This document shows, one piece after another, positions 33,263 to 49,122 of a DNA stretch of 64,000 nucleotides; the first letter of the stretch is position 1, and each line of letters begins with the position of its first letter. Made by a program: the position numbers and the translations under genes. The notes below the pieces were generated by a model, which did not search any database, was not told the DNA's origin, and worked only from the letters and a program-made list of their open reading frames with translations. The stretch is from an uncultured Actinomycetes bacterium (GTDB lineage Bacteria; Actinomycetota; Actinomycetes; Streptosporangiales; Streptosporangiaceae). The stretch is taken from assembly GCA_963800415.1 (NCBI GenBank), contig CAWDBS010000083.1:210-64209 (forward strand). The letters run 5' to 3'.

Positions 33263-34081
33263 GTGGATTCAGGCATCAGCGCGATCTTGCTGGACGCGGG
33301 TGGCGTCCTCGTCTTTCCCGAACCCGCCACTGTGCTCCCGCCGCTGCGCGCGGCCGGCGCGGACCCCGACCTGGCCACCCTGGAGCGCGCTCACTACCAG
33401 GCGATGGCGATCCAGGACGCCGAGGCGCTGCCGCCCGTCCAGGCCACCTGGTGGCACAACTACCTGCTCACCTACACGGCCGCCTGCGGCGTCCCTCCCG
33501 ACCAGGCCGGACTTCTCGCCGCCGAGATGTCCCAGGGCATCCGCGGGCACAGCTGGGCGCACGTCGGCCTCGGCGTGATGGACGGCCTGCGGGCCGTGGC
33601 CGGGCTCGGCCTGCCGATGGGCGTGGTCTCCAACTCCGACGGCAGCGTGGAGGGCGACCTGCGCCGCCTCGGCGTCTGCTACGCGCCGAAGCAGACGCCG
33701 GACCCCGCGCCAGGCCAAGCGCCCCCGCCAGCCGGCGTCGAGATGGGCGTCATCCTCGACTCCGCCGTGGTCGGCGTGGCCAAGCCGGACCCGGAGATCT
33801 TCCGCCTCGCGCTGGACGCCCTCGGCGTGCCCGCCGGCGGCACCGTCCTGCACGTGGGGGACAGCCTGCGGTACGACGTGGCCGGCGCCCTCGCCGCGGG
33901 CCTGCAGCCGGTGCACATGGACCCGTACGGATTCTGCCCGGCGCCCGATGGCCACCCGCACATCCGCAGCCTGGCCGAGCTAGCCGGGTCCGGCGATATC
34001 GAATCCGCGATAACCTTCCGCCGGCGCAATGCTGGTCCCCGGGGGGGACGACCCCCCCGAACCCCCCCGCGAGGGCACTAG
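33263..34081 (+). CDS. HAD-superfamily hydrolase; the C-terminal ~15 codons are contributed by a GC-hairpin repeat element
   Basis: HAD motif I is ILLDAGGVL and motif II is VVSNSDG. KPDPEIF and HVGDSLRYDV are also present. The GTG start at 33263 was chosen. The tail AGPRGGRPPRTPPRGH is encoded by the repeat at 34037-34075. Confidence 0.7.
   Translation: MDSGISAILLDAGGVLVFPEPATVLPPLRAAGADPDLATLERAHYQAMAIQDAEALPPVQATWWHNYLLTYTAACGVPPDQAGLLAAEMSQGIRGHSWAHVGLGVMDGLRAVAGLGLPMGVVSNSDGSVEGDLRRLGVCYAPKQTPDPAPGQAPPPAGVEMGVILDSAVVGVAKPDPEIFRLALDALGVPAGGTVLHVGDSLRYDVAGALAAGLQPVHMDPYGFCPAPDGHPHIRSLAELAGSGDIESAITFRRRNAGPRGGRPPRTPPRGH
34037..34075 (+). repeat. GC-hairpin repeat element, copy a (short form)
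   Basis: The sequence is CCCCGGGGGGGACGACCCCCCCGAACCCCCCCGCGAGGG. It shares the core CCCGGGGGGACGACCCCCC with copies at 44532, 47642 and 49018, and with the inverted copy ending at 42982. Confidence 0.8.
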
Positions 34082-34092
34082 ACTACGGCGTC

Positions 34093-35829
34093 ATGCGCTG
34101 GTCCAAACTGCACATCCCGACGCTGCGCGACGACCCGGCCGACGCCGGCGCGCCCAGCCACCGCCTGCTGCTCCGCGCGGGCTACATCCGCCAGCTGATG
34201 GCCGGGCATTATTCTCTGCTGCCGCTCGGCCAGCGGGTCCGGCTGAAGGTCATCGGGATCATCCGCGAGGAGATGAACGCGATCGGCGCGCAGGAGATCC
34301 TGATGCCGGTCATGCACCCGGCCGAGCTGTGGCAGACGAGCGGCCGCTGGGAGCTGATGGGGGACGAGATGTTCCGGCTGAAGGACCGCCGGGGCGCGGA
34401 CCTGGCCCTGGGCATGACCCACGAGGAGATCGTCGCAACGCTGGCCACCGAGCTCGAGTCCTACCGCCAGCTGCCGCAGATGTGGTATCAGATCCAGACC
34501 AAGCTGCGCGACGAGCCGCGGCCCAAGGCGGGCCTGATGCGCACCCGCGAGTTCACCATGAAGGACTCCTACAGCTTCGACCTGGGACCGGAAGGGCTGG
34601 ACGCATCCTTCGCCGCCCACCGCGGCGCCTACGCCCGCATCTTCGAGCGCCTCGGCATCCCGGCCATCCCGGCCGAGGCGTCCAACGGCACCATGGGCGG
34701 TTCGGACTCGATTGAGTTCATGTCTCCCTCGCCGACCGGCGAGGACCTCATCATTCACTGCCCCGACTGCGGTTACGCGGCGAACATAGAAAAGGCCACC
34801 TCCCGGCTGGCCGGCCTAGAAGATTCAGCCGAACGGACCGTGCTCCTCGCCGCCCCGGAGTCCTTTGCCACCCCGGGTGTGCGCACGATCGAGGATCTCG
34901 CCCAGCAGTACGATGCGCCGGCCGACCGGCAGATCAAGACCCTGGTGTACTTCCTGGACGGTGTGCTCACCCTGGTGCTGATGCGCGGCGACCACGCGCT
35001 GAACGAGCAGAAGCTCGTCGACGCGACCAGGGCGGTAGCGGTCCGCCCCGCCCAGCCGGAGGAGATCCGCGGCGTGCTCGGCGCCCTGCCGGGCAGCCTC
35101 GGCGCGGTCGGTACTCTGCCTGCCAGCCTCGGCGGTCCCCCGGTGATCGCGGACGAGGCGCTGCGCGGGCGGCGGGGCATGTACACCGGCGCCAACCTCG
35201 ACGACACCCACCTGCGCGGCGTGGACGTCGAGCGGGACATCGCCGTCGGCCAGTGGGCCGACCTGCGCGAGGCCGCCGCGGGCGAGGGGTGCGTCATCTG
35301 CGGCCATCCGCTCGAGGTGGAGCGCGGCATCGAGGTCGGCCACATCTTCAAGCTCGGCTACAAGTTCAGCGACGCCATCGGGCTGAGCGTGTCCGGCCCG
35401 GACGGCAAGCCGGTCCGGCCGATCATGGGTAGCTACGGCATCGGCGTGGAGCGGGCCATGGCTGCGGCCGTCGAGGTCCACCATGACGAGAAGGGCATCG
35501 CATGGCCGGTCTCGATCGCGCCGTTCGACGTCGTGGTGGTGATCGCCCAGCAGGACGACGCCGGCGTGGCCGCGGCGGGGGAGCTGGTGTACCAGGCGCT
35601 GCTCGGGGCCGGCGTTGAGGTCATCGTGGACGACCGGCCGGTCCGGGCCGGCGTCAAGTTCAGCGACGCCGAACTGGTCGGCATCCCGTTCCGGGTCACC
35701 GTGGGCAAGCGCGGCCTGGCCGCCGGGACCGCGGAGCTCACCGATCGCGCCACCGGCTCCACCGTGCCGATCCCGCTGGGCGATGAGCTGCCCAAGCATG
35801 TTCGGGAGGCAGTGGCCCAGGCCAGCTGA
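34093..35829 (+). CDS. proS: proline--tRNA ligase
   Basis: MRWSKLHIPTLRDDPADAGAPSHRLLLRAGYIRQL... is the ProRS N-terminus. Class II motifs and an INS domain are present in an intact 578-aa ORF. Confidence 0.93.
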   Translation: MRWSKLHIPTLRDDPADAGAPSHRLLLRAGYIRQLMAGHYSLLPLGQRVRLKVIGIIREEMNAIGAQEILMPVMHPAELWQTSGRWELMGDEMFRLKDRRGADLALGMTHEEIVATLATELESYRQLPQMWYQIQTKLRDEPRPKAGLMRTREFTMKDSYSFDLGPEGLDASFAAHRGAYARIFERLGIPAIPAEASNGTMGGSDSIEFMSPSPTGEDLIIHCPDCGYAANIEKATSRLAGLEDSAERTVLLAAPESFATPGVRTIEDLAQQYDAPADRQIKTLVYFLDGVLTLVLMRGDHALNEQKLVDATRAVAVRPAQPEEIRGVLGALPGSLGAVGTLPASLGGPPVIADEALRGRRGMYTGANLDDTHLRGVDVERDIAVGQWADLREAAAGEGCVICGHPLEVERGIEVGHIFKLGYKFSDAIGLSVSGPDGKPVRPIMGSYGIGVERAMAAAVEVHHDEKGIAWPVSIAPFDVVVVIAQQDDAGVAAAGELVYQALLGAGVEVIVDDRPVRAGVKFSDAELVGIPFRVTVGKRGLAAGTAELTDRATGSTVPIPLGDELPKHVREAVAQAS

Positions 35830-35841
35830 GGAGGGACCGGC

Positions 35842-36213
35842 ATGTCGCAGACGGTGAAGTGGCTACCCAAGCCGGAAAGGCATGACTTCCAGGCCGCGGA
35901 GGACTACCTGTCGCTGATCATGCCGGCCAAGCGGGCCGCCGAGTGGCGGCGGAAGCTGGCCGCCGCGCGGGACAACATCACCCACCGCAAGGCCAAGGAC
36001 ATCCTGCGGGCCAGCCAGCTCGCCCTGCTCGGCGAGGACAACAAGCACGTCGCGGCCGACCTGCGCAAGGCCGCCTCCGGCACGCCCCTGTCACCGATCC
36101 TGCTGCTGCGCGGCGATGATATCCACCCGCTCATCGTCGCCGATGGCTACCACCGGGTCTGCGCCAGCTACTGGATCGACGAGAACACCGACATTCCCTG
36201 CGTCATCGTCTAG
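35842..36213 (+). CDS. hypothetical protein, possibly with a ParB/Srx-like fold (ADGYHR motif)
   Basis: The intact 123-aa ORF starts 12 nt after proS and has good GC3. The C-terminal LLLRGDDIHPLIVADGYHRVCASY resembles the DGxHR motif of ParB/sulfiredoxin-like domains. This assignment is tentative. Confidence 0.5.
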   Translation: MSQTVKWLPKPERHDFQAAEDYLSLIMPAKRAAEWRRKLAAARDNITHRKAKDILRASQLALLGEDNKHVAADLRKAASGTPLSPILLLRGDDIHPLIVADGYHRVCASYWIDENTDIPCVIV

Positions 36214-36275
36214 CCCTCAGGGCCGGCTCGGCCGCCTCGGCCATGTTCCCCTCCCTCGCTGCTCTCACCTGCGGG

Positions 36276-38810
36276 CTAGGAGGCCTGCCGGTCGCGCTCC
36301 TGGCAGCGCAGCGCGCGGAGCACGTCGTCGCGGCCCTCGATGAGCAGGCGGCGCAGCGCGGCCGGCGGATCCGCCGCCCTGAGGGAGGCATCGGTCAGCT
36401 CGACCGTCTCGCGCGAGATCGCGCATACCCCGTAGGCGCCACTGGCGAAGTCCTGCGCCATCGCCGAGGGCCAGTTCCGCCAGATGTCCCCGAGGACCTC
36501 GAAGTACTTCTCCCGGTAGGGCTCGATCAGCGCGGGCTGGTCGGGGTCGACGAACCCGGCGAGCGTGGCGCGGAACATGGCGATGGTTAGCTCGCCTCCG
36601 GTCAGCGTTGCCCAGGCCTCCTGCTTGGCCTCGGCCGTCGGGATCGCGGCGCGGCACGTCGCGGCATGCCGTTGGCCTGCGTCAGTGGCGTCCCGGGCCA
36701 GCTCGGCGTCGATCTCATCCGGCCCGGCGGCGCCGCGGCTGACCAGCCGCCACAGCAGGGCCCAGCGCAGGTCGGTGTCGACGGTGAGCCCGTCCAGCTG
36801 GACCGAGCCGTCGAGTAGCCCGGCCAGCAGGGCCAGGTCGTCGCCCGTGGCCACGCCGGCGAAGGCCCGGAGGTACGCGAGCTGCACGTCCGAGCCGGGT
36901 GACGCCTCGTGCAGCAGACCGCGCAGGGTGCTGGCCATCAGGGCCAGCCCGGCCGGCCGCCAGCCGGGGTCGGCAAACCGGCGTACCGCCTGGCTGGCCT
37001 GCCGGAGCAAGGTCTGCACCACGCTGATGTCGGCCACCGAGGAGATGCCCGACAGGACCAGCTTGACGTAGTTGCGCGTCGCCATCTCGCCGTCGCGGCA
37101 CATGTCCCAGGCGGCGGACCAGCACAGCGCCGCCGGGAGCGAATCGGTGAACGAGCCGATCGAGTCCACCAAGGTTTGCAGCGAATGGTCATCGAGCCGG
37201 ATCTTGGCGTAGCTGAGGTCATCGTCATTAACCAGGGCCAGGTCGGGGCGCGGCTGCCCGGCCAGTTCCGGCACTACCGTGCGCGCGCCCGCCACGTCGG
37301 TCTCTACCCGCAGCCGGCGGACGATGCCGGCCTCAGTCCGGTCGTACAGGCCGATGGCGATGCGGTGCGAACGCAGCACCTGATGGGTGGCGGGCGCTTC
37401 CTGTTCCACCGCGAACTCGGTGAACCGGTCGTCGGCGCCCACCGAGTAGGACGGCCGCAGCGTGTTCACGCCCGCTGTCTGCAGCCATTGGGCCGACCAC
37501 GCGGCCAGGTCGCGGCCGGAGGTCTCCTCCAGGGCGGCCAGCAGGTCGGCCAGCGTCGCGTTGCCCCACGCGTGCGCGGCGAAGTACTTCCGCACGCCGT
37601 CCAGGAAGTTCTCCCGCCCGACGTAGGCCACCAGCTGCTTGAGCACGGACGCGCCCTTGGCGTAGGTGATCCCGTCGAAGTTCACCTCCACCGCCTCGAT
37701 GTCACCGATGTCGGCCGCGATCGGGTGGGTGGAGGGCAGCTGATCTTGCCGGTAGGCCCAGGCCTTGTACAGCTGGGCGAACGTGGTCCACGCCGACGTC
37801 CACCGCGTCGCCTCGGCCTGCGCCAGCGTGCCTGCCCAGGTGGCGAACGACTCGTTCAGCCACAGGTCATCCCACCAGCGCATGGTGACCAGGTCGCCGA
37901 ACCACATGTGCGCCATTTCGTGCAGGATCGTCTCGGCCCGCGCCTCGCGGGCGAAGTCGGTGACCCGCGACCGGAAAATGTAGGTTTCCAGGAACGTGAC
38001 GCAGCCGGCGTTCTCCATCGCGCCCTCTTTGAACTCCGGCACGAAGAGCTGGTCGTACTTGCCGAACGGGTACTTGATGCCGAACGAGCTGTGGAAGAAG
38101 TCAAAGCCCTGCCGCGTCACATCGAAGATCTCGTCGGCGTCAAGGTAGGAGGCCAGCGACTGGCGGCAGTACAGGCCGAGCGGGATGCCGTCGTGCTCGT
38201 CGCGGACCACGTGATAGGGCCCGGCCGCGACCGCCGTGATGTACGTCGGCACGACCGGGGTGGGCGGGAAATGCCAGCGAACTGCCTCGCCGCCGGGGAT
38301 GTTCGATTCCGCCGCCATGTTGGACACGACCAGCCAGTCCGCCGGGGCGGTGACCGACAGCTCGTAGCTGGCCTTCATGTCGGGCTGGTCGAAGCAGGCG
38401 TAGACCCGGTGCGCGTCAAAGGTCTCCAGGTCGGAATACAGGTAGACGCGCCCGTCGGCGGGATCGGTGAACCGGTGCAGGCCCTCGCCGCTGTGCGAGT
38501 AGGCGCAGTCGGCCGCCACTCGGAGCACGTTGTCGGCCGCCAGGGCGGTAAGCGTGATCCGGTTGCCGTCGAAGGCGTCCAGGCTGACCGGGGCGTCGTT
38601 CAGGGTGATCTCGCGGACCGCGGGGGCGGTGAGGTTGATGAAGGTGGATGAGCCCGGTGTGGCACAGCCAAACCTGACCACGCTGACCGAGCCGAACGTG
38701 GCGTCGCCGTCCCCCCGCGCCGTCAGGTCGAGGTCCACCTGGTAGGAAGCCACCGTTATGAGCGCCGAACGCGTCGCCGCCTCGTCGCGGGTCAGGTTGT
38801 CCGTGGTCAT
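36276..38810 (-). CDS. pepN: aminopeptidase N
   Basis: GAMEN (KEGAMENAG) and HEXXH (HEMAHMWFGD) motifs are present. The start at ATG 38810 gives MTTDNLTRDEAATRS. The ~845-aa ORF is intact. Confidence 0.93.
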   Translation of the reverse strand: MTTDNLTRDEAATRSALITVASYQVDLDLTARGDGDATFGSVSVVRFGCATPGSSTFINLTAPAVREITLNDAPVSLDAFDGNRITLTALAADNVLRVAADCAYSHSGEGLHRFTDPADGRVYLYSDLETFDAHRVYACFDQPDMKASYELSVTAPADWLVVSNMAAESNIPGGEAVRWHFPPTPVVPTYITAVAAGPYHVVRDEHDGIPLGLYCRQSLASYLDADEIFDVTRQGFDFFHSSFGIKYPFGKYDQLFVPEFKEGAMENAGCVTFLETYIFRSRVTDFAREARAETILHEMAHMWFGDLVTMRWWDDLWLNESFATWAGTLAQAEATRWTSAWTTFAQLYKAWAYRQDQLPSTHPIAADIGDIEAVEVNFDGITYAKGASVLKQLVAYVGRENFLDGVRKYFAAHAWGNATLADLLAALEETSGRDLAAWSAQWLQTAGVNTLRPSYSVGADDRFTEFAVEQEAPATHQVLRSHRIAIGLYDRTEAGIVRRLRVETDVAGARTVVPELAGQPRPDLALVNDDDLSYAKIRLDDHSLQTLVDSIGSFTDSLPAALCWSAAWDMCRDGEMATRNYVKLVLSGISSVADISVVQTLLRQASQAVRRFADPGWRPAGLALMASTLRGLLHEASPGSDVQLAYLRAFAGVATGDDLALLAGLLDGSVQLDGLTVDTDLRWALLWRLVSRGAAGPDEIDAELARDATDAGQRHAATCRAAIPTAEAKQEAWATLTGGELTIAMFRATLAGFVDPDQPALIEPYREKYFEVLGDIWRNWPSAMAQDFASGAYGVCAISRETVELTDASLRAADPPAALRRLLIEGRDDVLRALRCQERDRQAS

Positions 38811-38931
38811 CGGGTGATCGCCCCTTCTGCGGAATTTGCGTGGTTCCCGCGGTTTCTGGTTCGACCCTATCTGCCCTGGGCCTGGCTCACTTCCCCTCTT
38901 CGGCCGGCACCGCATCTGGCAGACTTGCCTC

Positions 38932-39405
38932 GTGCGCGTATACCTGGGATCTGATCACGCAGGCTTCGAACTGAAGGCCCGCCTCATCCAGTGGCTAGGC
39001 GCGGCCGGCCACGAGCCGGTGGACTGCGGTCCGAAAGCGTACGTTCAGGGCGACGACTACCCGCCGTACGTCATGCGGGCGGCGCACGGGGTGGCCAGCG
39101 ACCCGGGCAGCCTCGGCATCGTGATCGGCGGCTCGGGAAACGGCGAGCAGATCGCGGCGAACAAGATTCCGGGCATCCGCGCGGCGCTGGCCTGGACCGA
39201 TGAAACTGCCCAGCTGGCCCGGCAGCACAACGACGCCAACGTGCTCAGCCTCGGCGCGCGGATGTATGCCCTTGACGAGGCGGTCGGCTTCGCCCAGGTG
39301 TTCATCTCCACTCCCTTCTCCGGCGAGCCCCGGCACGCCCGGCGCCTGGCCATGATCGCCGACTATGAGAAAACCGGCGAGCTGCCCCCGCTACCCGCCT
39401 CCTGA
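38932..39405 (+). CDS. rpiB: ribose-5-phosphate isomerase B
   Basis: VRVYLGSDHAGFELK and ...GGSGNGEQIAANKIPGIRAA... are typical RpiB/LacAB family motifs. Confidence 0.9.
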   Translation: MRVYLGSDHAGFELKARLIQWLGAAGHEPVDCGPKAYVQGDDYPPYVMRAAHGVASDPGSLGIVIGGSGNGEQIAANKIPGIRAALAWTDETAQLARQHNDANVLSLGARMYALDEAVGFAQVFISTPFSGEPRHARRLAMIADYEKTGELPPLPAS

Positions 39406-39760
39406 GCTCCTCAGCCCCGAAGCTCTCCGGCGCTCAGCGAGACGGGCGCCCTCGATGGCCGGCGTCCCGTGGCCCCCGGCGCCGCCGCGGGAAACCCGGC
39501 CGTCCCGCGCGCTCGTCCCCAGTAGGCGTCCCCGCGCCCGGCTCCGTCCCGCCGGGTGCAGTCCTCGCCCGCGAACTGCCGGGCGTGCTCTCTTCGGCCG
39601 CCTCGGCCTCGGCGAGCTGCTCGGCGCGCGGGCGGGACACGTCCCTGGCCCGCATCGCGGCGTTGGGCGTCAGCTTCATGGGCGGCACGGCATCCTCCTG
39701 TGCCCAGTGTCATGCCAAAGGCGGATCACGCACTACCCCCGTGGCCAGGTTACGTTGCCT

Positions 39761-41038
39761 TTAGAAGACCATCGGGCACCAGGGAGCGGGATCCCAGGAC
39801 AAAGCGGCCGAGAGCTGCCGGGCGGCGCCGGGCCGCAGCTCGGCGACTAGGCCGCTGCCGACCAGGGCGCCCAGCCTGGTCCCGCCCAGGTACGCCGCGC
39901 CGAGTTCGGTCACGTCCAGCGCCAAGTCGGCCGTCGAGCTGGCCGGAACGCACGCCGCCGCCAGGCCGCCGCTAGTTTCGGCGGTGGTGGTAAGCCGCCA
40001 GCGCCCGGCGTTGGACGGCAGGATCTCGTCCCGCACCTCGATGACGATGTTGACCGGAGAGGAGTACCTGCGCCCGGCCAGTGCGCGGGGCACGTCGATG
40101 ATCCGGACCCACAAGCCGTCGCTCAGCTGCGGCCGGGCCCGTCGCGGGTCGGCCAGCTGGTAGAGCAGCGGGTCATCGACCGGGCGCCGCTGAACGTGGA
40201 ACTCGCTGGTCAGGTCCCTGCTCAGCAGGTCGGCCCAGAGGGCTGCGCTGGCCGCGGGATCGACCGCCATCAGCTCGCGCACGGTCAGCACGTTGTCCGG
40301 CAGGAAGTCGGTCCAGGAGTTCACGCCCGAGTACAGCGCGTAGCCGCGCGGCCCGCTGGCGTCCTCGGCCAGCAGGCAGTGCAGCGGGCTGGCGCCCTGC
40401 CGTTCCTCCGCTGGGTCGTCGATCGTGCTCCGCCACCACGCGTCGTTGCGCCCGAAGAACCCAGGGCGGGTCGGCAGTACCGCGTCGTAGACCTTGGTCA
40501 GCTCGGGCAGGGCGGCGTCGGGTTCGGCGATCCTCAGCCGCAGGCCATCACCGGACGGTGCGGTCATGGCCAGCTTCCCCTCGCCGCGCCGCAGCGTGAA
40601 GCCGAGGTACCAGCTGGCGCGGCCGTAACCGTACCTGGAGTAGATCACCGACTCTGATGCCCACAGGACGGCCAGCGGCTCGCCGCGGTCACGGACGTCG
40701 GCCAGCTGGCGGCGCATCAGGCTGTTCAGCACGCCCCGCCGCCGGTGCGTGGGCAGCACCGCCACGAAGGTCACCCCGGCGGCCGGCAGTGCCTTCTGCC
40801 CCGGCACGCTCAGCTGGAAGCTGTAACACATCGTGACGCCGACGGGCGTCGTACCGTCGTAGGCCGCGAGGGTCCGGTCGAACTCGAACCGGTCAAGGAT
40901 CACCCGCCGGTCGCTTTCGGACATCGGCGAGCCGTGGAAAGCGTGCTCGTCCACCCTGATGAAGCTGTCGAACTCATCGTCTTCGATGGGCCGGATCGGA
41001 TACGGGTCACCGGGGCGGCTGCTGGCAGACTCTGTCAT
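39761..41038 (-). CDS. Eis-like GNAT acetyltransferase (GNAT plus SCP2-like C-terminal domain)
   Basis: IRPIEDDEFDSFIRVDEHAFHG..., ...VAVLPTHRRRGVLNSLMRRQL... and ...VLWASESVIYSRYGYG match the Eis family pattern. The 425-aa ORF is intact. Confidence 0.8.
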   Translation of the reverse strand: MTESASSRPGDPYPIRPIEDDEFDSFIRVDEHAFHGSPMSESDRRVILDRFEFDRTLAAYDGTTPVGVTMCYSFQLSVPGQKALPAAGVTFVAVLPTHRRRGVLNSLMRRQLADVRDRGEPLAVLWASESVIYSRYGYGRASWYLGFTLRRGEGKLAMTAPSGDGLRLRIAEPDAALPELTKVYDAVLPTRPGFFGRNDAWWRSTIDDPAEERQGASPLHCLLAEDASGPRGYALYSGVNSWTDFLPDNVLTVRELMAVDPAASAALWADLLSRDLTSEFHVQRRPVDDPLLYQLADPRRARPQLSDGLWVRIIDVPRALAGRRYSSPVNIVIEVRDEILPSNAGRWRLTTTAETSGGLAAACVPASSTADLALDVTELGAAYLGGTRLGALVGSGLVAELRPGAARQLSAALSWDPAPWCPMVF

Positions 41039-41120
41039 GTATGCCTTAGTACCTCTGCTTGCCCCGCCGGCGCGACTGGTTTAGCCTGCGCCGGCCCGGA
41101 TCGAATACAGTGCCCGCATC

Positions 41121-42239
41121 ATGGTTACCCCGCCGCCGCCGAACAGACCTCGCCCCCGGCGGCGTGCGCTGCGGTTCTTTCGGTCCCTGCGTACCCAGCT
41201 GACCAGGCAGTTCATTACCAGGAACCGTCGGCTGGCCTTCGCCTTGTCGGTGCTGACGATCGCCATCGCGGTGGCCTCGGTGCACCTGTCGGGGTGGTGG
41301 TTCTCGCCCGGCGTGATGATATTGCCGATCCTGGCCGGGGGCCTGCTGCTGTGGCCGCGGGCGCTGCGTATCTTCTTCGGGTTCGCCGCGGTGGCCCTCA
41401 TCTACGACGTGGTCCAGGACAGGGCCGGGGCCGGCATCATCGCCACCATCGTGCTCACCGCCGCCTTCGCCGACGTGCTGGCGCGGACCAGGGAGAAGCT
41501 CGGCGTCCAGGGGCTGCGCGGCGACCGGATGCTGCTCGAGTTGCGGGACCGTATCCGGGCGCAGGGCAAGCTCCCCGAACTCGGCGAGGGCTGGGGGTCG
41601 TCCCTGGTGCTCAAGCCGGCCGGCGGTTCGTCGTTCGGCGGCGACTTCGTGGTGTCGTTCTGCGACGGCAAGATGCTCGAGGTGGCGCTGGTCGACGTCT
41701 CCGGGAAGGGCATCGACGCGGGGACCAGGGCGCTGCTGCTCTCCGGTGCCTTCGGCGGGCTGCTCGGCTCGGTGCCCAGGGACGAGTTCCTCCCCGCCTG
41801 CAACGCCTACATGCGCCGCGGTGCGGGCAGCGAGGGCTTCGTCACGGCCGTGCACCTCTCGCTGGACCTGGCGTCGGGTGAGTACGTGGTCTCGTCGGCC
41901 GGCCATCCGCCGGCCGTGCACTACGACGGGGCGGCGGGCCGCTGGCGGCTGACCCGGGCGCACGGGATCGTTCTCGGCGTGGTGCCGGACCTGCACGGCG
42001 CGGCCACCGAATCCGAGCGCGGCGTGCTGCAGCGCGGCGACGCGCTCATGCTCTACACCGACGGGCTGGTCGAAGCGCCCGGGCTGGACATCGACGTGGG
42101 TACCGACCGGCTGCTCGGCGAGGCCGAGCGCATGCTGACCAGCGGTTTCCGGACCGGTGCCCCGGCACTGGTCGCGGCCATGCAGCGGGAGATCGGCGGC
42201 TCCGACGACCGCGCCCTGGTGCTGCTCTGGCGAGCTTGA
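41121..42239 (+). CDS. PP2C-family (SpoIIE-like) serine/threonine phosphatase with N-terminal transmembrane segments
   Basis: GGDFVVSFCDGKMLEVALVDVSGKGIDAG... and ...LMLYTDGLVE are SpoIIE/PP2C motifs. Three or four N-terminal hydrophobic helices are present. Confidence 0.8.
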   Translation: MVTPPPPNRPRPRRRALRFFRSLRTQLTRQFITRNRRLAFALSVLTIAIAVASVHLSGWWFSPGVMILPILAGGLLLWPRALRIFFGFAAVALIYDVVQDRAGAGIIATIVLTAAFADVLARTREKLGVQGLRGDRMLLELRDRIRAQGKLPELGEGWGSSLVLKPAGGSSFGGDFVVSFCDGKMLEVALVDVSGKGIDAGTRALLLSGAFGGLLGSVPRDEFLPACNAYMRRGAGSEGFVTAVHLSLDLASGEYVVSSAGHPPAVHYDGAAGRWRLTRAHGIVLGVVPDLHGAATESERGVLQRGDALMLYTDGLVEAPGLDIDVGTDRLLGEAERMLTSGFRTGAPALVAAMQREIGGSDDRALVLLWRA

Positions 42240-42444
42240 GCCGGGGCGGTCCCGAAGGTGACCCGGACTCCCGGCCGAGCGGCTGGCGTGGCTGCGGGCG
42301 CTCCATATCGGAGGTAGCCCGGCAACTCGAAGATCTCTCCTAACCGGAGAGCCCCCGGTGATGCGATGAAGGAGCGGGCCTCCGCTCCTGGCGGACACCA
42401 TTAGCGGCTGCCTCGCCGGCTGCCGGGCCCCTACCGCGTCGAAA

Positions 42445-42483
42445 CTGACATGTATGTCAGGTATTTCCAATATCATGATATTG
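42445..42483. promoter_or_regulatory. two adjacent palindromes upstream of the hopanoid operon (candidate operators)
   Basis: CTGACAT-GT-ATGTCAG lies at 42445-42460 and the perfect 16-bp palindrome CAATATCATGATATTG lies at 42468-42483. Both sit in a lower-GC 400-bp gap about 180-220 nt upstream of hpnC. Confidence 0.4.
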
Positions 42484-42662
42484 TTCGCTAACACAAAAAC
42501 TATTTTCCCGGCTGTAACCTGCGTGAACACTGGCGAAACCTTGCGAACAGTAATGAACGGGCCGCTCAGCGGCTCCGGCTCCCCAGGTTAGCCGACGCCT
42601 CCGTCATGTGACGCACGCGTCATTGTTTGCAATTATTTGTGCATTCCCTGGAAGATAACTCC

Positions 42663-43665
42663 GTGACCGGGGGCAGCCGAAGTACCGGCGATACCGAACG
42701 GGCGGGCGTGCGGGAGCACGTCCGCCCGTCGCTGACGCGCGCCGAAGAGGTGGTGGCCAACGCGTCGGGGGAGAACTTTCCGGTCGCGCTCCGCCTGCTG
42801 CCAGCCCGGTACCGGCGGCACCTGACGAACCTGTATTTCTTCGCGCGGCTTACCGACGACCTCGGCGACGAGGTCAGGCCAGGGGGGTCTGGGCCAGGGG
42901 AGTACGGGCCAGGGGGGTACGGGGGGGCGGGGCAGCCCCCCCGTGAGCGGGGGGTTCCCGGGGGGTCGCCCCCCCGGACTAACACAGTTTCGGCTGCGCC
43001 TGCTCGACGAGCTGGCCGCCGACGTGGACCGCATCTATCAAGGCCAGACAGCGCAATCGCCGGTCATGCGCGCGATGGCGGACACCGTGCGCGAGTGCGG
43101 CGTCCCGGCCAAGCCGCTGCTCGACCTGATCCAGGCCAACCGGCAGGACCAGCAGATCACCCGCTACCGCACGTTCGCCGACCTGGCGCAGTACTGTGAG
43201 CTGTCCGCCAATCCCGTAGGCCAGATCGTGCTCTACATCTTCGGCGTCGCCACGCCGGACCGCATCGCCCTCTCCGATAGCGTCTGCACTGCCCTGCAGC
43301 TGGCCGAGCATTGGCAGGATGTGGCCGAGGACCTGGGCAACGGGCGGATTTACCTGCCGGGCGAGGACCTGGAGCGGTACGGCTGCACGGAGGCAGACCT
43401 GGCCGCACCCACCGCGAACCCGGCCGTGCGACAGCTGATGATCTTCGAGGTCGACCGCGCCTCGCGCCTGCTCGACGAGGGCGCGCCGCTGGTCGGCACG
43501 CTGCGCGGCGCGGCCAGGCTGGCGGTCGCGGGCTACCTCGCGGGCGGGCGGGCGGCGCTGGCCGCGATCAGGGCGCAACGGCATGACGTACTGAGGGGAA
43601 CCCCGCGGCCGCGCAAGCAGCGGCTGGCCGCGGAGCTGGTCAAGGCTTACGTGAGAGGGAGGTGA
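42663..43665 (+). pseudogene. hpnC: hydroxysqualene synthase HpnC (squalene/phytoene synthase family), interrupted by a repeat element and frame change
   Basis: GENFPVALRLLPARYRRHLTNLYFFARLTDDLGDEV is read in frame 0. A 115-nt G/C-homopolymer-rich insert follows. The sequence RLRLLDELAADVDRIY...NPVGQIVL...LQLAEHWQDVAEDLGNGRIYLP then continues in frame +1 to the stop at 43665. Confidence 0.8.
42876..42982 (-). repeat. GC-hairpin repeat element, copy b (inverted orientation) inside hpnC
   Basis: The reverse complement of the right end reads CCGGGGGGGCGACCCCCCGGGAACCCCCCGC, which matches the family core. The left half carries GGGCCAGGGG(G/A)GTAC direct repeats. It contains C7-GTGAGC-G6 and G6-TCG-C7 hairpins. 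Confidence 0.75.
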
Positions 43666-43675
43666 GCAGGCGCTA

Positions 43676-44518
43676 GTGGAACTCACCGAGGCGTACCGCG
43701 AATGCGAGCGGATCACGTGGACGCAGGCGAGGAACTTCGCTTACGGCATCAGGCTGCTGCCGGCCGTCAAGCGGCGCGGCCTCGCCGTCATTTACGCGTT
43801 CGCCCGCCGCATCGACGACATCGGCGACGGCACGCTGCCTGCTGAGGAGAAGATCGCCGCGTTGGAAGCAGCCCGCCGCGCGGTCCTGGACCTCAGCTCG
43901 GCTGATCCGGCCGATCCGGTGCTGCTCGCGCTGGCCGACACCGGGCGCATCTTCGGTGTCCCGATGGCCGCGTTCGGCGAGCTGATAGACGGGTGCGTGG
44001 CCGACGTGCGCGGCACGCACTACGAGACGTTCGAGGACCTCCTGCACTACTGCCGCTGCGTGGCCGGCTCGATCGGCCGGCTGTCCCTGGGCATCTTCGG
44101 CACCCGCCATGATCCGGGGGAGGCCGCGCGCCTGGCCGACTCGCTGGGCGTTGCCCTGCAGCTGACGAACATCCTGCGCGATATCCGCGAGGACTACCAG
44201 AACGGGCGGGTTTACCTGCCCGCAGAAGACCTGGCAAAATTCGACTGCGAGCTGGATAACCCAGACGCCGCCCAGTTCAAGCGTCTGGTCGAGTTCGAGG
44301 CCGAACGGGCCAGGGACTGGTACGCCACCGGCTTGCGGCTGCTGCCGATGCTCGACCACCGCAGCGCCGCCTGCACCGGAGCCATGGCGGGCATCTACCA
44401 GCAGCTGCTCGACCGGATCGCCGCGCATCCGGCCGCGGTACTGCGCGGCCGGATGTCGCTGTCGGCGGGGGAGAAGGCCGCGGTCGCCGTCAAGGCCCTG
44501 GCCAGGAGGATCCGATGA
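43676..44518 (+). CDS. hpnD: presqualene diphosphate synthase HpnD (squalene/phytoene synthase family)
   Basis: YRECERITWTQARNFAYGIRLLPAVKRRGLAVIYAFARRIDDIGD... and ...LQLTNILRDIREDYQNGRVYLP are present in an intact 280-aa ORF. Confidence 0.88.
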   Translation: MELTEAYRECERITWTQARNFAYGIRLLPAVKRRGLAVIYAFARRIDDIGDGTLPAEEKIAALEAARRAVLDLSSADPADPVLLALADTGRIFGVPMAAFGELIDGCVADVRGTHYETFEDLLHYCRCVAGSIGRLSLGIFGTRHDPGEAARLADSLGVALQLTNILRDIREDYQNGRVYLPAEDLAKFDCELDNPDAAQFKRLVEFEAERARDWYATGLRLLPMLDHRSAACTGAMAGIYQQLLDRIAAHPAAVLRGRMSLSAGEKAAVAVKALARRIR

Positions 44519-46029
44519 ATGCTCTGCCTGTCCCGGGGGGACGACCCCACGGGATCCCCCGGAAGGGAGTCAGAGTCGTGGTGATCGGCGGCGGGCTGGC
44601 CGGGATCACCGCCGCGATCACGCTCGCGGAGTCGGGCGCCGACGTCACCCTGCTCGAGGCCAGGCCCCGGCTCGGCGGCGCGACCTGCTCCTTCAACCGG
44701 GACGGCCTGATCGTCGACACCGGCCAGCACGTCTTCCTCGGCTGCTGCTCGGCCTACCGCGGCCTGCTGGCCAAGCTCGGCATGACCGAGCAGGCGCCGC
44801 TGCAGGACCGCTTCGACGTGACCGTCCTCGCCCCCGGCCGCTCTGCTAGCGAACCCAGGCGGGCCAGGCTCCGCCGGACCGCGCTCCCCGGCCCCCTGCA
44901 TATGCTTCCGGCCCTGGGCCGGTACCCGTTTCTTTCCCGGGCCGAACGGATGTCGGTGGCTCGCCCGGCGCTTTCGATGCGCTTTGTCGACCCGGCCGAC
45001 CCGGCGGCGGACACGCAGCGGTTCGGCGACTGGCTAGCCGCGCGCGGACAGAGCGAGCGGACCCGCCGGGCGCTGTGGGACCTGTTCTCCGTCTCGTCCC
45101 TGAACATCGCGGGCGATGACGCCTCGCTGGCGCTGGCCGCCACCGTGGTGAAAACCGGCCTGCTCGGCAGGAACAACGCGGCGGACATCGGCGTCCCGGC
45201 CCTCCCGCTCGGCGAGCTGCACGGCGACGCGGGAGCGACCCTGCTGACCAAGCTCGGCGCCCAGGTCGCCCTGGGCACCAAGGTCGCTGCTATCGAGGCC
45301 GGGGCGATCCGGCCCGGCGACGACTGCGGGTTCCGCGTCCGGCTGACGCAGGGCGGTGAGATGCCGGCCGACGCAGTGGTCGTGGCCGTCCCGCACGAGA
45401 AGGCCGCGCCGCTGATCCCGCCGGGCACGCTGCCGGACGGGACGGTGGCGAGCTGGGCCGGCCTGGGCGCGTCACCCATCGTCAACGTGCACGTGATCTA
45501 CGACCGGCCGGTGACCGACCTCCCGTTCGCCGCCGCCATCGACTCCCCGGTGCAGTGGATCTTCGACCGGACCCGCATCTCCGGCATCAGTGCCTCTAAC
45601 CACGGGGCCTCTAACCACGGGGCCTCTAACCACGGGGCCTCTAACCACGGGGCCTCTAACCACGGGCGTGCTGGGCAGCAGTACCTGGCCATCTCGCTGT
45701 CGGCCGCGGACGAGTACGTGGACGTGCCTGCCGCCCGGCTGCGCGAGCAGTTCGTCCCCGCGCTGGCCGAACTGCTCCCCGCCGCCCGCGACGCCCGGGT
45801 CACCGAGTTCTTCGTCACCCGGGAGCGGCGGGCGACCTTCCGCCAGGCACCGGGCAGCGGCGCGCTGCGGCCGAAGGCCGCGACCCTGCGGCCGGGCCTG
45901 GTGCTGGCCGGCGCGTGGACCGATACCGGCTGGCCGGACACGATGGAAGGCGCGGTGCGCAGCGGCCTGGCCGCGGCCATCGAGCTACGTCATACCGTTC
46001 ATACCTCAACGATGGGGGTACCTCAGTGA
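44515..46029 (+). CDS. hpnE: hydroxysqualene dehydroxylase HpnE (FAD-dependent amine-oxidase family)
   Basis: The dinucleotide-binding motif VVVIGGGLAGITAAITLAESG is present, and the gene follows hpnD. The true start may be GTG 44578 rather than ATG 44515. It contains an in-frame (ASNHG)5 repeat. Confidence 0.85.
   Translation: MNALPVPGGRPHGIPRKGVRVVVIGGGLAGITAAITLAESGADVTLLEARPRLGGATCSFNRDGLIVDTGQHVFLGCCSAYRGLLAKLGMTEQAPLQDRFDVTVLAPGRSASEPRRARLRRTALPGPLHMLPALGRYPFLSRAERMSVARPALSMRFVDPADPAADTQRFGDWLAARGQSERTRRALWDLFSVSSLNIAGDDASLALAATVVKTGLLGRNNAADIGVPALPLGELHGDAGATLLTKLGAQVALGTKVAAIEAGAIRPGDDCGFRVRLTQGGEMPADAVVVAVPHEKAAPLIPPGTLPDGTVASWAGLGASPIVNVHVIYDRPVTDLPFAAAIDSPVQWIFDRTRISGISASNHGASNHGASNHGASNHGASNHGRAGQQYLAISLSAADEYVDVPAARLREQFVPALAELLPAARDARVTEFFVTRERRATFRQAPGSGALRPKAATLRPGLVLAGAWTDTGWPDTMEGAVRSGLAAAIELRHTVHTSTMGVPQ
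44532..44567 (+). repeat. GC-hairpin repeat element, copy c (short form) at the hpnD/hpnE junction
   Basis: The sequence is CCCGGGGGGACGACCCCACGGGATCCCCCGGAAGGG. It lies between the hpnD stop (44518) and a well-placed alternative hpnE start (GTG 44578, preceded by GGAAGGGAG). Confidence 0.75.
45592..45666 (+). repeat. perfect 5 x 15-bp tandem repeat inside hpnE
   Basis: GCCTCTAACCACGGG occurs five times with no mismatch. It is in frame and encodes ASNHG x5. Confidence 0.95.
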
Positions 46030-47058
46030 CTGCTGTAATGCCCGAGGGCGTGGCCCTGGCCCGGGACCTGGTCGGCCCCGCGATGGAGTCCGCGATCGCC
46101 CGGCTGACGCCGGACGTGCGCGTCGTCGCGGCGTACCACCTCGGCTTCGCGGACGCCGCGGGTAACCCGACCGGCAACGGCAACGGTGCCGGTAAAGGGG
46201 GCAAGGCGCTGCGGCCCGCACTCGCCCTGCTGTCCGCCCGCGCCGCGGGCGCGCCGCCCGAGCGCGGCGTGACCGCCGCGGTCGCGGTCGAGCTCGTGCA
46301 CAACTTCTCCCTGCTGCACGACGACATCATGGACAACGACACCGAGCGCAGGCACCGCCCGACGGCCTGGACCGTGTTCGGCGTCGGCGCGGCCATCCTG
46401 GCCGGGGACGCGCTGCTCGCACTGGCTCAGGACCTGCTGCTGGAGGACGGTAACCCGCAGGGCGCGTGGGCGGCCCGGTGCCTGTCCGCGGCGGTGCAGC
46501 GGCTGATCGGCGGCCAGGGCTCGGATCTGGCCTTCGAGAAGCGTGACGACGTGACGCTGGCCGAGTGCCTGGACATGGCCGGCGACAAGACCGCCGCGCT
46601 GATGGCCTGCGCCTGCAGCATCGGGGCGGTGCACCTCGGCGCGCCGCCCACGCTGGCGATGGGGCTGGCCGGGTTCGGCGCGCACGTCGGGCTGGCGTTC
46701 CAGCTCACCGACGACCTGCTCGGCATCTGGGGCGCGCCCGAGGTCACCGGCAAGCCGGTCCGCGCGGACCTGCGCGCCCGGAAGAAGTCGCTGCCCGTCG
46801 TGGCCGCGCTGAACAGCGGCACGCCCGGGGCGGCCGAACTCCGTGCCCTGCTCGACCACCCCGGCGCCGCTGACCGAGGACGACCTGGTCCGCGCGGCCG
46901 ACCTGGTGGTCGCGGCGGGCGGCAGGGACTGGGCCGAGGCCGAGGCCGACGCGCAGCTCGCCGCGGCCAACGCCAGCCTGGCCGACATCGACCTGCCCGC
47001 CGACGTCCGGGCCGAGCTGACCTCGATCGCCGAGTTCATCACGGCACGCCAGTGGTAG
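46026..47058 (+). pseudogene. polyprenyl diphosphate synthase (FPP/GGPP synthase family), frameshift near 46860
   Basis: The GTG start overlaps the hpnE stop (GTGA). The motifs LLHDDIMDND and FQLTDDLLGIWG are present. After ...LRALLDHP the frame changes. The conserved C-terminus (...LTEDDLVRAADLVVAAGGRDWAEAEA...SIAEFITARQW, stop at 47058) is in frame +1. Confidence 0.8.
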
Positions 47059-47641
47059 CCAGCACGGTGGTAGTCAACGCTCGCGAAACTCTCCAACGAG
47101 CCCGTGATCACGCGCTCGGGCTGCAGCACGCCGACGGATGGTGGCAGGGCGAGCTCGAGACCAACGTCACCATGGACGCCGAGGACCTGCTGCTGCGCGA
47201 GTTCCTCGGCCTGCACGACGACGCGGCGATCGCGGCGGCGGCGCGCTGGATCCGCTCCCAGCAGCGGGACGACGGCACCTGGGCCAACTTCTACGGCGGG
47301 CCGGGTGACCTGTCCACTACGGTCGAGGCCTACCTGGCGCTGCGGCTGGCCGGCGACGATCCGGACGCGACGCACATGAAACAGGCCTGCGCCTGGATCC
47401 TCGATCAGGGCGGCGTCGAGGCGACCCGCGTGTTCACCCGGATCTGGCTGGCGCTTTCCGGCCTGTGGCCGTGGGACGAGCTGCCGGTCATCCCGCCCGA
47501 GCTGATCTACCTGCCGTCCTGGTTCCCGCTCAACATCTACGACTGGGGCTGCTGGGCGCGGCAGACCATCGTCGCGCTCGCCGTGGTGCAGTCGTTCCGC
47601 CCGTCCCGGCCGCTCTCGTTCACCATCGACGAACTGTATAG

Positions 47642-47779
47642 CCCGGGGGGACGACCCCCCCCAAACCCTCCCCGCGGTTCTTCCGGGGGGACCCATCCCC
47701 CCAGAAGCCCCTTGGGAGAGACCCATCCCCCCGGACCCCCCTGGGGGGACAAGCCCCCCGACCCTCCCGGGATCCCTGG
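47642..47779 (+). repeat. GC-hairpin repeat element, copy d (long form) inside shc
   Basis: The element starts CCCGGGGGGACGACCCCCCCC and continues through ...CCCCGCGGTTCTTCCGGGGGGACCCATCCCCCC and ...GAGAGACCCATCCCCCCGGACCCCCC... to ...CTCCCGGG. It is collinear with copy e over about 100 nt, and its ends form an imperfect inverted repeat (CCCGGGGGGAC / CCCGGGAGGGTC). Confidence 0.8.
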
Positions 47780-49017
47780 GAGCGTGTCTTCACCATCCTG
47801 GACAAGGCGCTGCACAAGTACCGTCCGGTCAAGTCGGTCCGCCGCGCGGCGCTGCGCCGCTGCGCGGAGTGGATCATCGCCCGGCAGGAGCGGGACGGCT
47901 GCTGGGGCGGCATCCAGCCCCCCTGGGTGTACTCGCTGATGGCGCTGAACCTGCTCGGCTACGAAATCACGCACCCCATCATGCAGCGCGGACTTAGCGG
48001 TCTTGACCGGTTCACCATCACCGAAGACACTGCGGACGGGCCGGTGCGCCGCCTGGAGGCGTGCCAGTCGCCGGTCTGGGACACCGTGCTGGTGATGGTC
48101 GCTCTCGCCGACGCCGGCCTGCCCGCCGACCACCCCGCGCTGGCCAACGCCGCCCAATGGGTGCTCGGCGAGGAGATCCGCGGGCCTGGTGACTGGCAGG
48201 TGCGCCAGGCCGGACCTGGCTCCCGGTGGCTGGGCGTTCGAGTTCGACAACGACACCTACCCCGACACCGACGACACCGCCGAGGTTGTCCTCGCGCTGC
48301 GCCGGGCCGGACCTAGGAGCCCCCAGCACCAGGCCGCCATCGACCGCGGGCTGACCTGGCTGGCCGGGATGCAATCCAAGGACGGCGGCTGGGGCGCGTT
48401 CGACGCGGACAACACCCGCGAGCTCGTCAACAAGCTGCCGTTCTGCGACTTCGGCGCGGTCATCGACCCGCCCTCGGCCGACGTGACCGCGCACATCGTG
48501 GAGGCGTTCGCCGCCGAGGGACGCGCCGCCGACCTGGTGGTGCGCCGCGGCGTGGTCTGGCTGCTGCGGGCGCAGGAGCCGGACGGATCCTGGTTCGGCC
48601 GCTGGGGGGCGAACTACGTCTACGGCACCGGTGCCGTGGTGCCCGCGCTGATCGCGGCCGGGGTGAAGCCGTCCAAGCCGGCCATCCGCCGCGCCGTGGC
48701 CTGGCTGGAGGGGCACCAGAACCCGGACGGCGGCTGGGGCGAGGACCTGCGCTGCTACGACGACCCGGCGCTGGCCGGGCAGGGCACCTCCACCGCGTCG
48801 CAGACCGCCTGGGCGCTGCTCGCCCTGCTCGCGGCCGGCGAATGGGACAGCTCCGCGACCGAACGCGGCGTCCGCTGGCTCGCCCAGACGCAGCGGGCCG
48901 ACGGCAGCTGGGACGAGCCGCAGTTCACCGGCACCGGCTTCCCCGGCGACTTCTACATCAACTATCACCTGTACCGGCTGGCCTTCCCGATCAGTGCCCT
49001 CGGCAGATACGTGCTGG

Positions 49018-49122
49018 CCCGGGGGGACGACCCCCCGGAGCCCCCCGCGGTTTCCTCCGGGGGGACCCATCCCCCCGGACCCCCCTTGGGAGAGACCCAT
49101 CCCCCCGGACCCCCCTTGGGAG
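49018..49122 (+). repeat. GC-hairpin repeat element, copy e (long form) at the shc 3' end
   Basis: The sequence is CCCGGGGGGACGACCCCCCGGAGCCCCCCGCGGTTTCCTCCGGGGGGACCCATCCCCCCGGACCCCCCTTGGGAGAGACCCATCCCCCCGGACCCCCCTTGGGAGAC. It ends 8 nt before the hpnG ATG. Confidence 0.8.

Follow-up and report, generated by a model that had tools for sequence, protein, structure and literature searches.

The Rickettsia palindromic elements (RPEs) are palindromic interspersed repeats that, according to the account of Ogata et al. (2000) given in PMC10969869, often lie in frame inside unrelated genes. [quoted passage not shown] A 64,000-nt stretch of DNA from an uncultured actinomycete of the family Streptosporangiaceae (contig CAWDBS010000083.1, positions 210 to 64,209; the whole stretch is called the window below) was found to contain exactly five copies of one repeat, a unit built around a G6/C6 hairpin, at the end of a haloacid dehalogenase (HAD) hydrolase gene and in the hopanoid (hpn) operon. 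The five sequences are probably copies of a single unnamed, selfish family of short interspersed palindromic repeats of Streptosporangiales that behaves like the RPEs. As far as these searches can tell, the family was previously undescribed.

Of the known systems, RPEs appear to be the closest in behaviour. Both families are palindromic and interspersed and have no transposase of their own; copies of both stand between genes and, with unusual frequency, in frame within housekeeping genes that are unrelated to one another, where the protein fold can accommodate them. An RPE is, however, about 100-150 bp long and AT-rich, with one conserved peptide in one frame per family, whereas the Streptosporangiales unit is 39-41 nt long, is made up of G and C homopolymers, is read in six frames and both orientations, and is accompanied by 30-nt tandem modules. 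RPE sequences are specific to Rickettsia. RPE hosts are reduced, obligate intracellular bacteria, the Streptosporangiales hosts have large, free-living, high-GC genomes, and the two kinds of element share no sequence similarity.

The five copies were located by the first-pass annotation of the window, and a core scan, mutual alignment and an external profile placed them at the same positions (Table 1). With up to three mismatches, the core CCCGGGGGGACGACCCCCC gave nine matches at five sites (double matches of the palindrome counted) against 0.38 expected, and none of 100 dinucleotide shuffles of the window gave as many. The module GGGGGGACCCATCCCCCC was matched four times against 0.25 expected, and 28 of the 34 runs of at least six G or C in the window fell within the five sites. 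An nhmmer profile that was built solely from 132 copies of other genomes, and then run on the window, recovered only the five sites (E 6.6e-10 to 1.6e-4; next match E = 2.1). All five copies could be aligned with one another, the 42.9 kb copy as its reverse complement, and the two long forms (47.6 and 49.0 kb) were collinear over about 100 nt, as had been claimed. The modules of G-run, loop and C-run, predicted in the same annotation to form hairpins, did so on folding as DNA (6-9 bp); the z-scores were modest because shuffled GC-run sequence folds well too. With Tandem Repeats Finder, the 30-nt modules were counted as 1.9 copies at 47690-47746 and as 2.0 copies of 100% identity at 49064-49123, and 42877-42923 was resolved into 3.1 copies of a 15-nt unit. 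The assignment of three copies to gene junctions (HAD/proS, hpnD/hpnE and shc/hpnG) and of two to the interior of hpnC and shc was corroborated by open reading frames (ORFs) and Pfam, and the proposed clustering of four of the five copies near one operon was found to span 6.25 kb (probability about 0.02 by an approximate scan statistic, 20 x (6.25/64)^3).

When 129 copies from other genomes were aligned on the exact core, conservation spanned positions -10 to +29 around it, with information content at background on either side. The unit so delimited is 39-41 nt long and asymmetric, consisting of a 10-nt left tag, a hairpin of 8-9 bp (CC-G6 paired with C6-GG, with an ACGA loop), a spacer of 3-4 nt and a second run of C6-7 (consensus G-C-N-G-T-G-C-T-R-G / CCC GGGGGG ACGA CCCCCC / GGAA / CCCCCC G). 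The conserved left tag had been overlooked at first pass; in its main-subfamily form, GCNGTGCTRG, it is present in all five window copies. Each subfamily pairs a tag with a spacer (GGAA with GTGCTAG; GTA with GTTATCC, in Trebonia; C7-AGA-C7 with GGTGCTGG), and in Actinomadura and Herbidospora the copies have, as judged by eye, a further tag of their own, while the hairpin and the second C-run are invariant across genera. As read directly from the sequence, the core contains no T, and none of the stop triplets (TAA, TAG, TGA) occurs in its complement, which leaves the unit open in all six frames; the CTAG variant of the tag is the sole source of a stop. Downstream of the units follow variable modules, such as the G6-ACCCAT-C6-N3-C6 repeats of 30 nt in the window, and copies that adjoin one another are arranged as direct tandems, at periods of 29, 42, 75, 87 and 90 nt. 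In two loci (L028 and L089) whole composites are repeated with a period of 87-90 nt. A CRISPR array was considered for these and rejected, the entire period being repeated with the "spacer" included; the window holds no such array. In Trebonia-type loci (L010, L018, L020, L075, L081, L096, L109 and others) the unit was often paired with an unrelated long hairpin repeat, GCGCGCCCGATGGCAAAAACCGCCATCGTATCGGGCGCGC, which was found on either side of it and gives rise to BIME-like mosaics.

The core proved abundant in related genomes. In a collection with one genome per species, the exact 19-mer was present at 119 or more loci in about 90 genomes, and among the matches listed almost all carriers were, by record title, Streptosporangiales: Trebonia (including the isolate T. 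kvetii), Streptosporangiaceae, Nocardiopsaceae and Nocardiopsis, Allonocardiopsis opalescens, three Actinomadura species, Herbidospora mongoliensis and many actinomycete metagenome-assembled genomes (MAGs). Three outliers among the matches listed each lay on a short contig. Only one match was obtained in 2.9 million viral contigs (IMG/VR), which means that chance does not commonly produce the 19-mer; a phage origin was rejected on the same result. A sequencing artefact was likewise rejected, the repeats being present both in assemblies with SPAdes- or k-mer-type names (isolates and MAGs) and in long-contig MAG assemblies. Could the copies instead be hypervariable, low-complexity Pro/Gly loops, not mobile at all, that arose independently through replication slippage and GC bias? 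The same loops do hold tandem repeats unrelated to the unit, namely (ASNHG)n within hpnE and, in two relatives, an 18-nt repeat within the hpnC loop, and the 30-nt modules do expand in tandem, but such an origin is extremely unlikely: an identical 19-mer with its flanks (about 40 nt) stands in unrelated genes and in intergenic DNA, in both orientations and six frames, so that the shared feature is the DNA and not a peptide. The low chance expectation per window and the single match in all viral contigs speak against it as well, and the distribution of the core, the conservation of its flanks and the recovery of all five copies by an independent profile effectively refute it.

Insertion polymorphism was assessed in six orthologous hpn loci (L120, L121 and L123-L126), fetched via homologues of squalene-hopene cyclase (SHC), with about 88-92% nucleotide identity to the window and identical synteny; site lengths are given as nucleotides between fixed anchors. 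As the first-pass annotation had suggested checking, orthologous sites were compared, and the hpn clusters and HAD genes showed empty alleles at all five positions; the copies are therefore not ordinary conserved sequence. Each hpn site was empty in some orthologous loci and held other forms or lengths of the family in other relatives. The hpnD/hpnE junction, 68 nt in the window, was empty in L120, L123 and L125 (29 nt each) and measured 125, 80 and 62 nt in L121, L124 and L126, respectively. The loop in shc (157 nt in the window) was empty in L120 and L126 (56 nt each), reached 215 nt in L121, and in L124 (155 nt) held an in-frame form of +99 nt at the same junction; L123 and L125 offered no anchor. 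The shc/hpnG junction (134 nt in the window) was empty in L120 and L126 (32 nt each) and in L121 and L125 (29 nt each), and L123 (71 nt) had a short form of +39 nt there, L124 giving no anchor. The hpnC loop ranged from 31 to 100 nt in the six orthologues (67, 31, 100, 52, 44 and 31 nt in L120, L121, L123, L124, L125 and L126, respectively), and the 116 nt of the window exceeded the shortest by 85 nt, which is not a multiple of three. Among the relatives the net length differences were all multiples of three, for example +39 (L123 tail), +33 (L126), +21, +51, +72, +96, +99 and +159. Further sites were seen inside hpnE (L126, in frame) and inside hpnD (L125). In the seven genomes, for which loci of 13-22 kb were covered, all convincing copies lay in or at the edge of the hpn operon, and none was found in the approximately 10 kb that flank it.

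A wider survey was made at the protein level, in 120 SHC homologues of at least 77% identity. Peptides encoded by the element were recognised in the loop of 16 of 85 scorable homologues, in three frames (PGGRPP, RGDDPP, GGTTP), and at the C-terminus of 19 of 119, the remaining homologues showing two short "empty" states per site. For the HAD hydrolase, homologue P0129 ends in ...AITFRRR (empty), and about 12 of 120 homologues had element-coded tails in various frames. Two degenerate patterns of the ProS N-terminus, used for the HAD/proS junction, gave 0 matches in metagenome scans.

The habit of lying within genes was not confined to the hpn operon. The flanks of 133 copies in 119 loci were sorted by a codon-position GC classifier, which left 59 copies unclassifiable and assigned 74. 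Of the latter, 21 (about 28%; 12 sense, 9 antisense) lay in a continuous ORF with coding signal on both sides, and one was flanked by coding sequence on the same strand with a frame change and no stop; 33 (17 sense, 16 antisense) were at the junction of co-directional genes, 13 between convergent and six between divergent genes. No orientation is preferred, which speaks against a strand-specific RNA role of the whole family, and the translated intragenic copies used all six frames in both orientations. Upstream stop codons were within 17 nt of the core in 16 of 41 cases. Pfam, run on ten in-frame copies, set them in linkers or loops, either between domains (NAD synthetase (NadE), Lnt, prolyl oligopeptidase, FO synthase, HrpA and GlnD) or inside a domain that the insert stretches (riboflavin synthase, the HD domain of a dGTPase and a GT2 glycosyltransferase); an MMPL protein was a further host. 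In the window, the two intragenic copies occupy variable loops of HpnC and SHC and interrupt the domains there: Pfam places copy 2 between positions 40 and 49 of the SQS_PSY profile in HpnC, and copy 4 after position 185 of the profile for the N-terminal domain of SHC. Against the solved enzyme of A. acidocaldarius, the SHC insert lies in the sole unaligned segment, between residues 189 and 211, and residue 625 of 631 is the last one before the SHC tail. In an AlphaFold2 model of an SHC homologue with the insert, mediocre as a whole (mean pLDDT 64.8), residues 195-257 had no secondary structure (pLDDT about 28).

The first-pass annotation had also described the junction copies as being read through into protein tails. 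This holds for the three junction copies, which are in frame, and not for the hpnC and shc copies, which are out of frame as assembled, a change of frame that it had overlooked: the frame goes from 0 to 1 across copy 2, and from 0 to 2 across copy 4 (with the switch within 47642-47684). The broken frames of hpnC and shc are very probably assembly errors, because six unrelated single-base insertions also break neighbouring conserved genes. These insertions, at 46854, 48207, 52372, 52447, 52746 and 61342, hit the polyprenyl synthase gene (46854), shc, a gene for an FtsX-like ABC permease (three times) and a class II aldolase gene, and none of them stands in a long homopolymer; they point to an error-prone assembly or, with less likelihood, to gene decay on a wide scale. 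The window insert in hpnC (+85 nt) amounts to 84 + 1 nt and that in shc (+101 nt) to 99 + 2 nt; in addition, copy 4 has a C8 run at 47655-47662 where C6-C7 is usual, and C6 would restore the frame. A true decay of the hopanoid cluster, in which insertions and frameshifts have inactivated hpnC and shc and relaxed selection lets the elements accumulate, would account for the frame changes across both intragenic copies, for that at 48207 and for the frameshift in the polyprenyl synthase gene. It is nevertheless unlikely. The insertions fall outside the cluster as well (three in the permease gene, one in the aldolase gene); all six are +1 relative to each of three orthologues, like a technical signature; the coding sequence between frameshifts is still 88-94% identical to the orthologues at the protein level; the same hot spot is seen in relatives whose genes are intact and in frame; and removal of one base from the hpnC insert and two from the shc insert leaves 84 and 99 nt, the latter being the length of the in-frame form of L124. 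In two near-identical contigs from different samples (L121, 20144-20691; L122, 20144-20692) a gene of the sigma-70 family was split in one, so indel noise occurs in related long-contig MAG assemblies too.

With regard to movement, flank matches of 3-6 nt, taken at all offsets around 100 non-tandem copies, were not above those of shuffled pairings, and the comparison of empty and filled alleles at the hpn sites showed no target duplication, a few ancestral bases often being replaced. Terminal inverted repeats were not found in the aligned copies, which have the tag at the left only and end at the right in the C-run followed by G. Like MITEs, the repeats are small and non-autonomous, and host ORFs can run through them, but the defining terminal inverted repeats, target-site duplications and parent insertion sequence of MITEs were not found here. 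One long-form subtype (core, GCGGTTTCCTCC, G6ACCCATC6 and TTGGGAGRGACCCATC6, the last being a module whose G-run is mutated) was common to the shc loop and the shc tail of the window and to the hpnD copy of L125, while the orthologous shc-loop copies of L121 and L125 were of a different subtype; composites of about 100 nt therefore appear to have been copied between sites or homogenised by ectopic conversion. Arrays lengthen in 30-nt steps, and L125 has five or six modules, which encode GGDKSPRTPL. No recurrent transposase was seen among 904 ORFs of the 119 loci (about 1.1 Mb), the recurrent families being ABC ATPases, response regulators, permeases and the like, and tblastn with the TnpA proteins of IS200 and IS608 found no match in the same sequence, a weak search on a small sample. 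A protein that recognises hairpins in single-stranded DNA and ectopic gene conversion are the leading candidates for the means of movement.

A hairpin with a one-sided tag and no target duplication is, we infer, the type of substrate used by RAYT or IS200/IS605 enzymes, and it is a tentative possibility that the unit is mobilised as in REP/REPIN systems. The enzyme would be a single-copy HUH tyrosine transposase, of RAYT or IS200/IS605 type, and would move single-stranded hairpins by cutting and pasting, with no target duplications left behind. This would concern the mechanism of mobility only and would be compatible with a selfish, RPE-like family. In addition to the one-sided tag and the lack of target duplications and terminal inverted repeats, the covariation of tag and spacer by subfamily or lineage is as expected of co-evolution with a recognition protein, and many copies lie just 3' of stop codons, as described above. 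The unit is, like REPs (20-40 nt), a short GC-rich imperfect palindrome in many copies (39-41 nt with an 8-9 bp stem, in the 119 or more loci noted above), tagged at one end, free of target duplications, frequent just 3' of stop codons, divided into lineage-specific subfamilies and joined into mosaics with other repeat modules. It departs from them in that it is not extragenic (21 of the 74 classifiable copies and two of the five window copies are intragenic), that its tag is a 10-mer differing by subfamily and neither GTAG nor CGTC, that neighbouring copies are direct tandems and neither inverted doublets (REPINs) nor alternating (BIMEs), and that the core is conserved across the families of an order instead of being species-specific. 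No RAYT or other Y1 transposase gene has been found so far in the sampled loci, with the weak search described above. The first-pass label of a REP/MITE-like family tolerating coding regions thus holds for a dispersed, coding-tolerant family, while the defining features of MITEs and of classical REPs are absent.

No named family had been recognised at first pass, and the database and literature searches agreed with this. At curated thresholds, Rfam reported only Actino-pnp in the window; at permissive thresholds, sub-threshold matches to Guanidine-II, a viral frameshift element and Acido-1 appeared, all of which were rejected as memberships. No paper containing the repeat sequence was found, and the papers mentioning Trebonia were not about repeats. 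A survey of GTAG- and CGTC-tagged REPs made no mention of Actinobacteria or of the five Streptosporangiales genera searched for, and a 2024 review of MITEs made none of Actinobacteria, Streptomyces or Mycobacterium.

The Guanidine-II match bears on the idea that the repeats are a cis-acting signal of the host, be it guanidine-II-like ACGA hairpins, stabilisers or terminators of 3' ends, or G6-N4-C6-N4-C6 triplexes or i-motifs that tune the hopanoid operon. The unit does resemble one GC stem of Guanidine-II (mini-ykkC, RF01068) with its ACGA (ACGR) tetraloop, and 49019-49075, in copy 5, scored 25.5 bits against that model, another window match reaching 17 bits (threshold 32). The invariance of the hairpin and second C-run across genera, the enrichment in the hpn operon of seven genomes and the frequent position 3' of stop codons would also agree with a signal. 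It is an improbable reading all the same. Sense and antisense copies are equally frequent at co-directional junctions (17 and 16) and inside ORFs (12 and 9), antisense copies present UCGU and not ACGR loops, and the hosts are dozens of unrelated genes. The window copies have no second ACGR hairpin (the loops there being ACCCAT) and score below the curated threshold, and half of the copies are antisense to the host gene; moreover, all sites are dispensable, being empty in close relatives, and no U-tract follows the hairpins. Guanidine-II membership was rejected on score and on context, the window copies lying in or at the ends of HAD, hpnC, hpnE and shc and not in the 5' untranslated regions of genes for guanidine export or metabolism. 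An intrinsic terminator was rejected too: the hairpin is followed by GGAA and C6 and not by a T run, there is no orientation bias, and many copies are inside ORFs. One pair of units 29 nt apart in L018 (3903-3947, minus strand) scored 36.2 bits, above the Guanidine-II threshold; by eye, the ORF that it precedes resembles JAMM/Mov34, not a guanidine-related gene, and the pair is probably a systematic false positive of the model.

If the five sequences belong to a selfish, RPE-like family, as we consider probable, the unit would spread to further sites by copying, in both orientations and with neither target-site duplication nor terminal inverted repeats, whole composites of about 100 nt could be copied too, and arrays would grow and shrink locally by tandem duplication of the 30-nt G6-loop-C6-N3-C6 modules. 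Because the unit is stop-free in six frames (the CTAG tag variant excepted) and the inserts that survive in genes are multiples of three, a copy would be tolerated where it falls into a surface loop, an interdomain linker, a protein end or an operon junction, and would presumably be translated as a Pro/Gly/Arg-rich peptide. In the window, three copies would in this way extend protein ends at gene junctions, with the ATGA overlaps retained. Several points count against this explanation. The same sites are filled repeatedly, and the restriction to hpn in seven genomes is not predicted by random selfish spread. No mobilising gene was found in the approximately 1.1 Mb of sampled loci, and the evidence for mobility is insertion polymorphism. 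At about 90% identity, the element junctions are not clean; the ancestral loop is partly replaced, which blurs the exact ends and the target. In the window as assembled, the frames of hpnC and shc are broken, frame preservation at the SHC loop was ascertained in part from proteins called at full length, and the translation of the inserts is an inference. The conservation of hairpin and C-run base for base across genera exceeds what is usual in REPs and could point to a function for the host.

If the unit were not just tolerated but the substrate of a dedicated hairpin-recognising and site-targeting system, this would explain why the same positions are filled recurrently and why the hpn operon is a hot spot; we regard this as highly unlikely. 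G6-N4-C6-N3/4-C6 could fold as a pH-sensitive C+.G-C triplex, as an i-motif or as ACGA kissing hairpins, and the G/C tracts could slip. If true, any of these could provide acid-soil Streptosporangiales with a switch or rheostat acting on hopanoid synthesis and on other host genes.

A selfish, RPE-like family, if confirmed, would constitute an independent second case of selfish DNA inside genes, so far a hallmark of Rickettsia, in hosts with large, free-living, high-GC genomes. Some of these hosts are culturable (Trebonia kvetii, Actinomadura, Nocardiopsis, Herbidospora) and would be tractable for studying how such elements move and how enzymes tolerate inserted loops. The family may be regarded as a natural map of insertion tolerance in SHC, HpnC, HpnE and many housekeeping enzymes, and the variable sites could serve as strain-typing markers for uncultured soil actinomycetes. 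For annotation, the effects include spurious Pro/Gly tails and a risk of misled start-codon calls and of tandem pairs above the Rfam guanidine-II threshold, and the stacked G/C homopolymers make the element loci fragile in long-read assemblies.

Table 1. Repeat copies, host genes and related features of the window
Feature	Position	Strand	External nhmmer match	E	Description or basis
HAD hydrolase	33197-34081				Pfam, orthologue comparison
Copy 1, short form	34026-34069	+	34042-34069	6.7e-6	Tag GCAATGCTGGT, then CCCC-G7-ACGA-C7-GAA-C7-G
proS	34093-35829				Pfam, orthologue comparison
Host hpn operon	42708-51639	+			Pfam, ORFs, synteny with L120-L126
hpnC	42708-43665	+			Pfam, orthologue comparison
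Copy 2, inverted long form inside hpnC	42874-42989	-	42948-42987	1.6e-4	Unit 42948-42987
hpnD	43676-44518	+			Pfam, orthologue comparison
hpnE	44515-46029	+			Pfam, orthologue comparison
Copy 3, short form	44521-44563	+	44528-44563	5.8e-6	Decayed stem (CCCCAC)
Polyprenyl synthase	46083-47055	+			Pfam, orthologue comparison
shc	47052-49133	+			Pfam, orthologue comparison
Copy 4, long form inside shc	47634-47779	+	47637-47669	9.9e-7	Unit 47634-47672, tag CTGTATAG, core 47642-47660
Extra base (cgccAggccgg)	48207	+			Returns shc frame from 2 to 0; outside the element
Copy 5, long form at 3' end of shc	49008-49123	+	49011-49048	6.6e-10	Unit 49010-49047, two perfect 30-nt modules 49064-49123
hpnG-ispH fusion	49130-50638	+			Pfam, orthologue comparison
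hpnH	50638-51639	+			Pfam, orthologue comparison

The copies differ in the modules joined to the unit and in their relation to the host genes. Copy 1 encodes the last 14 or so codons of the HAD-hydrolase ORF (stop 34079-34081) and ends 24 nt upstream of the proS start at 34093. In copy 2 the unit is joined to a G7-CGGGGCAG-C7 hairpin and to three 15-nt GGCCAGGGGGGTACG repeats (42877-42923), and in copy 4 it is followed by modules of the G6-ACCCAT-C6 type with a 30-nt period. Copy 3 stands just 3' of the ATGA overlap (44515-44518) between the hpnD stop and the hpnE start and adds a net 39 nt in frame with hpnE; GGAAGGGAG (44561-44569) with GTG at 44578 forms a possible alternative ribosome-binding site and start for hpnE. 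Copy 5 adds a net 102 nt and gives shc a Pro/Gly-rich tail of 34 codons up to the ATGA overlap with hpnG (49130-49133), so that the overlapping stop and start are kept at both junctions.

The mycobacterial interspersed repetitive units (MIRUs) of Mycobacterium are 46-101 bp long, are known from intergenic operon junctions only and are not G/C-run hairpins. The Streptosporangiales family resembles them as an actinobacterial repeat with direct tandem units at operon gene junctions, a strain-variable copy number and open frames that keep the overlapping stop and start (here ATGA, with copies 3 and 5 being multiples of three). It differs from MIRUs in size and sequence and in lying also deep inside coding sequence and between convergent genes.

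Some further features of the hpn loci were noted. In the window, hpnE contains a perfect 15-nt tandem repeat in five copies (45592-45666) that encodes (ASNHG)5, is present in 0-6 copies in the six relatives and is unrelated to the G6/C6 family. The hpnC loops of L120 (5981-6047) and L123 (5864-5963) carry an 18-nt tandem repeat, (GACACGAGCGAGGGGGCC)n, and the HpnC loop is therefore hypervariable by more than one mechanism. hpnG (a PNP_UDP_1 nucleosidase) and ispH/lytB form one ORF in the window, and a fusion of 494-503 aa was also called in five of the six relatives.

Elsewhere in the window, a degenerate 15-nt periodic repeat (CCGCCGTTCGGGGGC-like) in a high-GC region at 19301-19577 has no relation to the G6/C6 family and probably encodes a protein repeat rich in Pro and Gly. 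About 2.77 kb are duplicated in tandem (5319-7858 and 8090-10626; 94-98% identical, with fragmented ORFs), and the duplication is either real or an assembly artefact. It adjoins the single Actino-pnp leader at 5070-5179 and therefore probably covers the gene pnp (polynucleotide phosphorylase).

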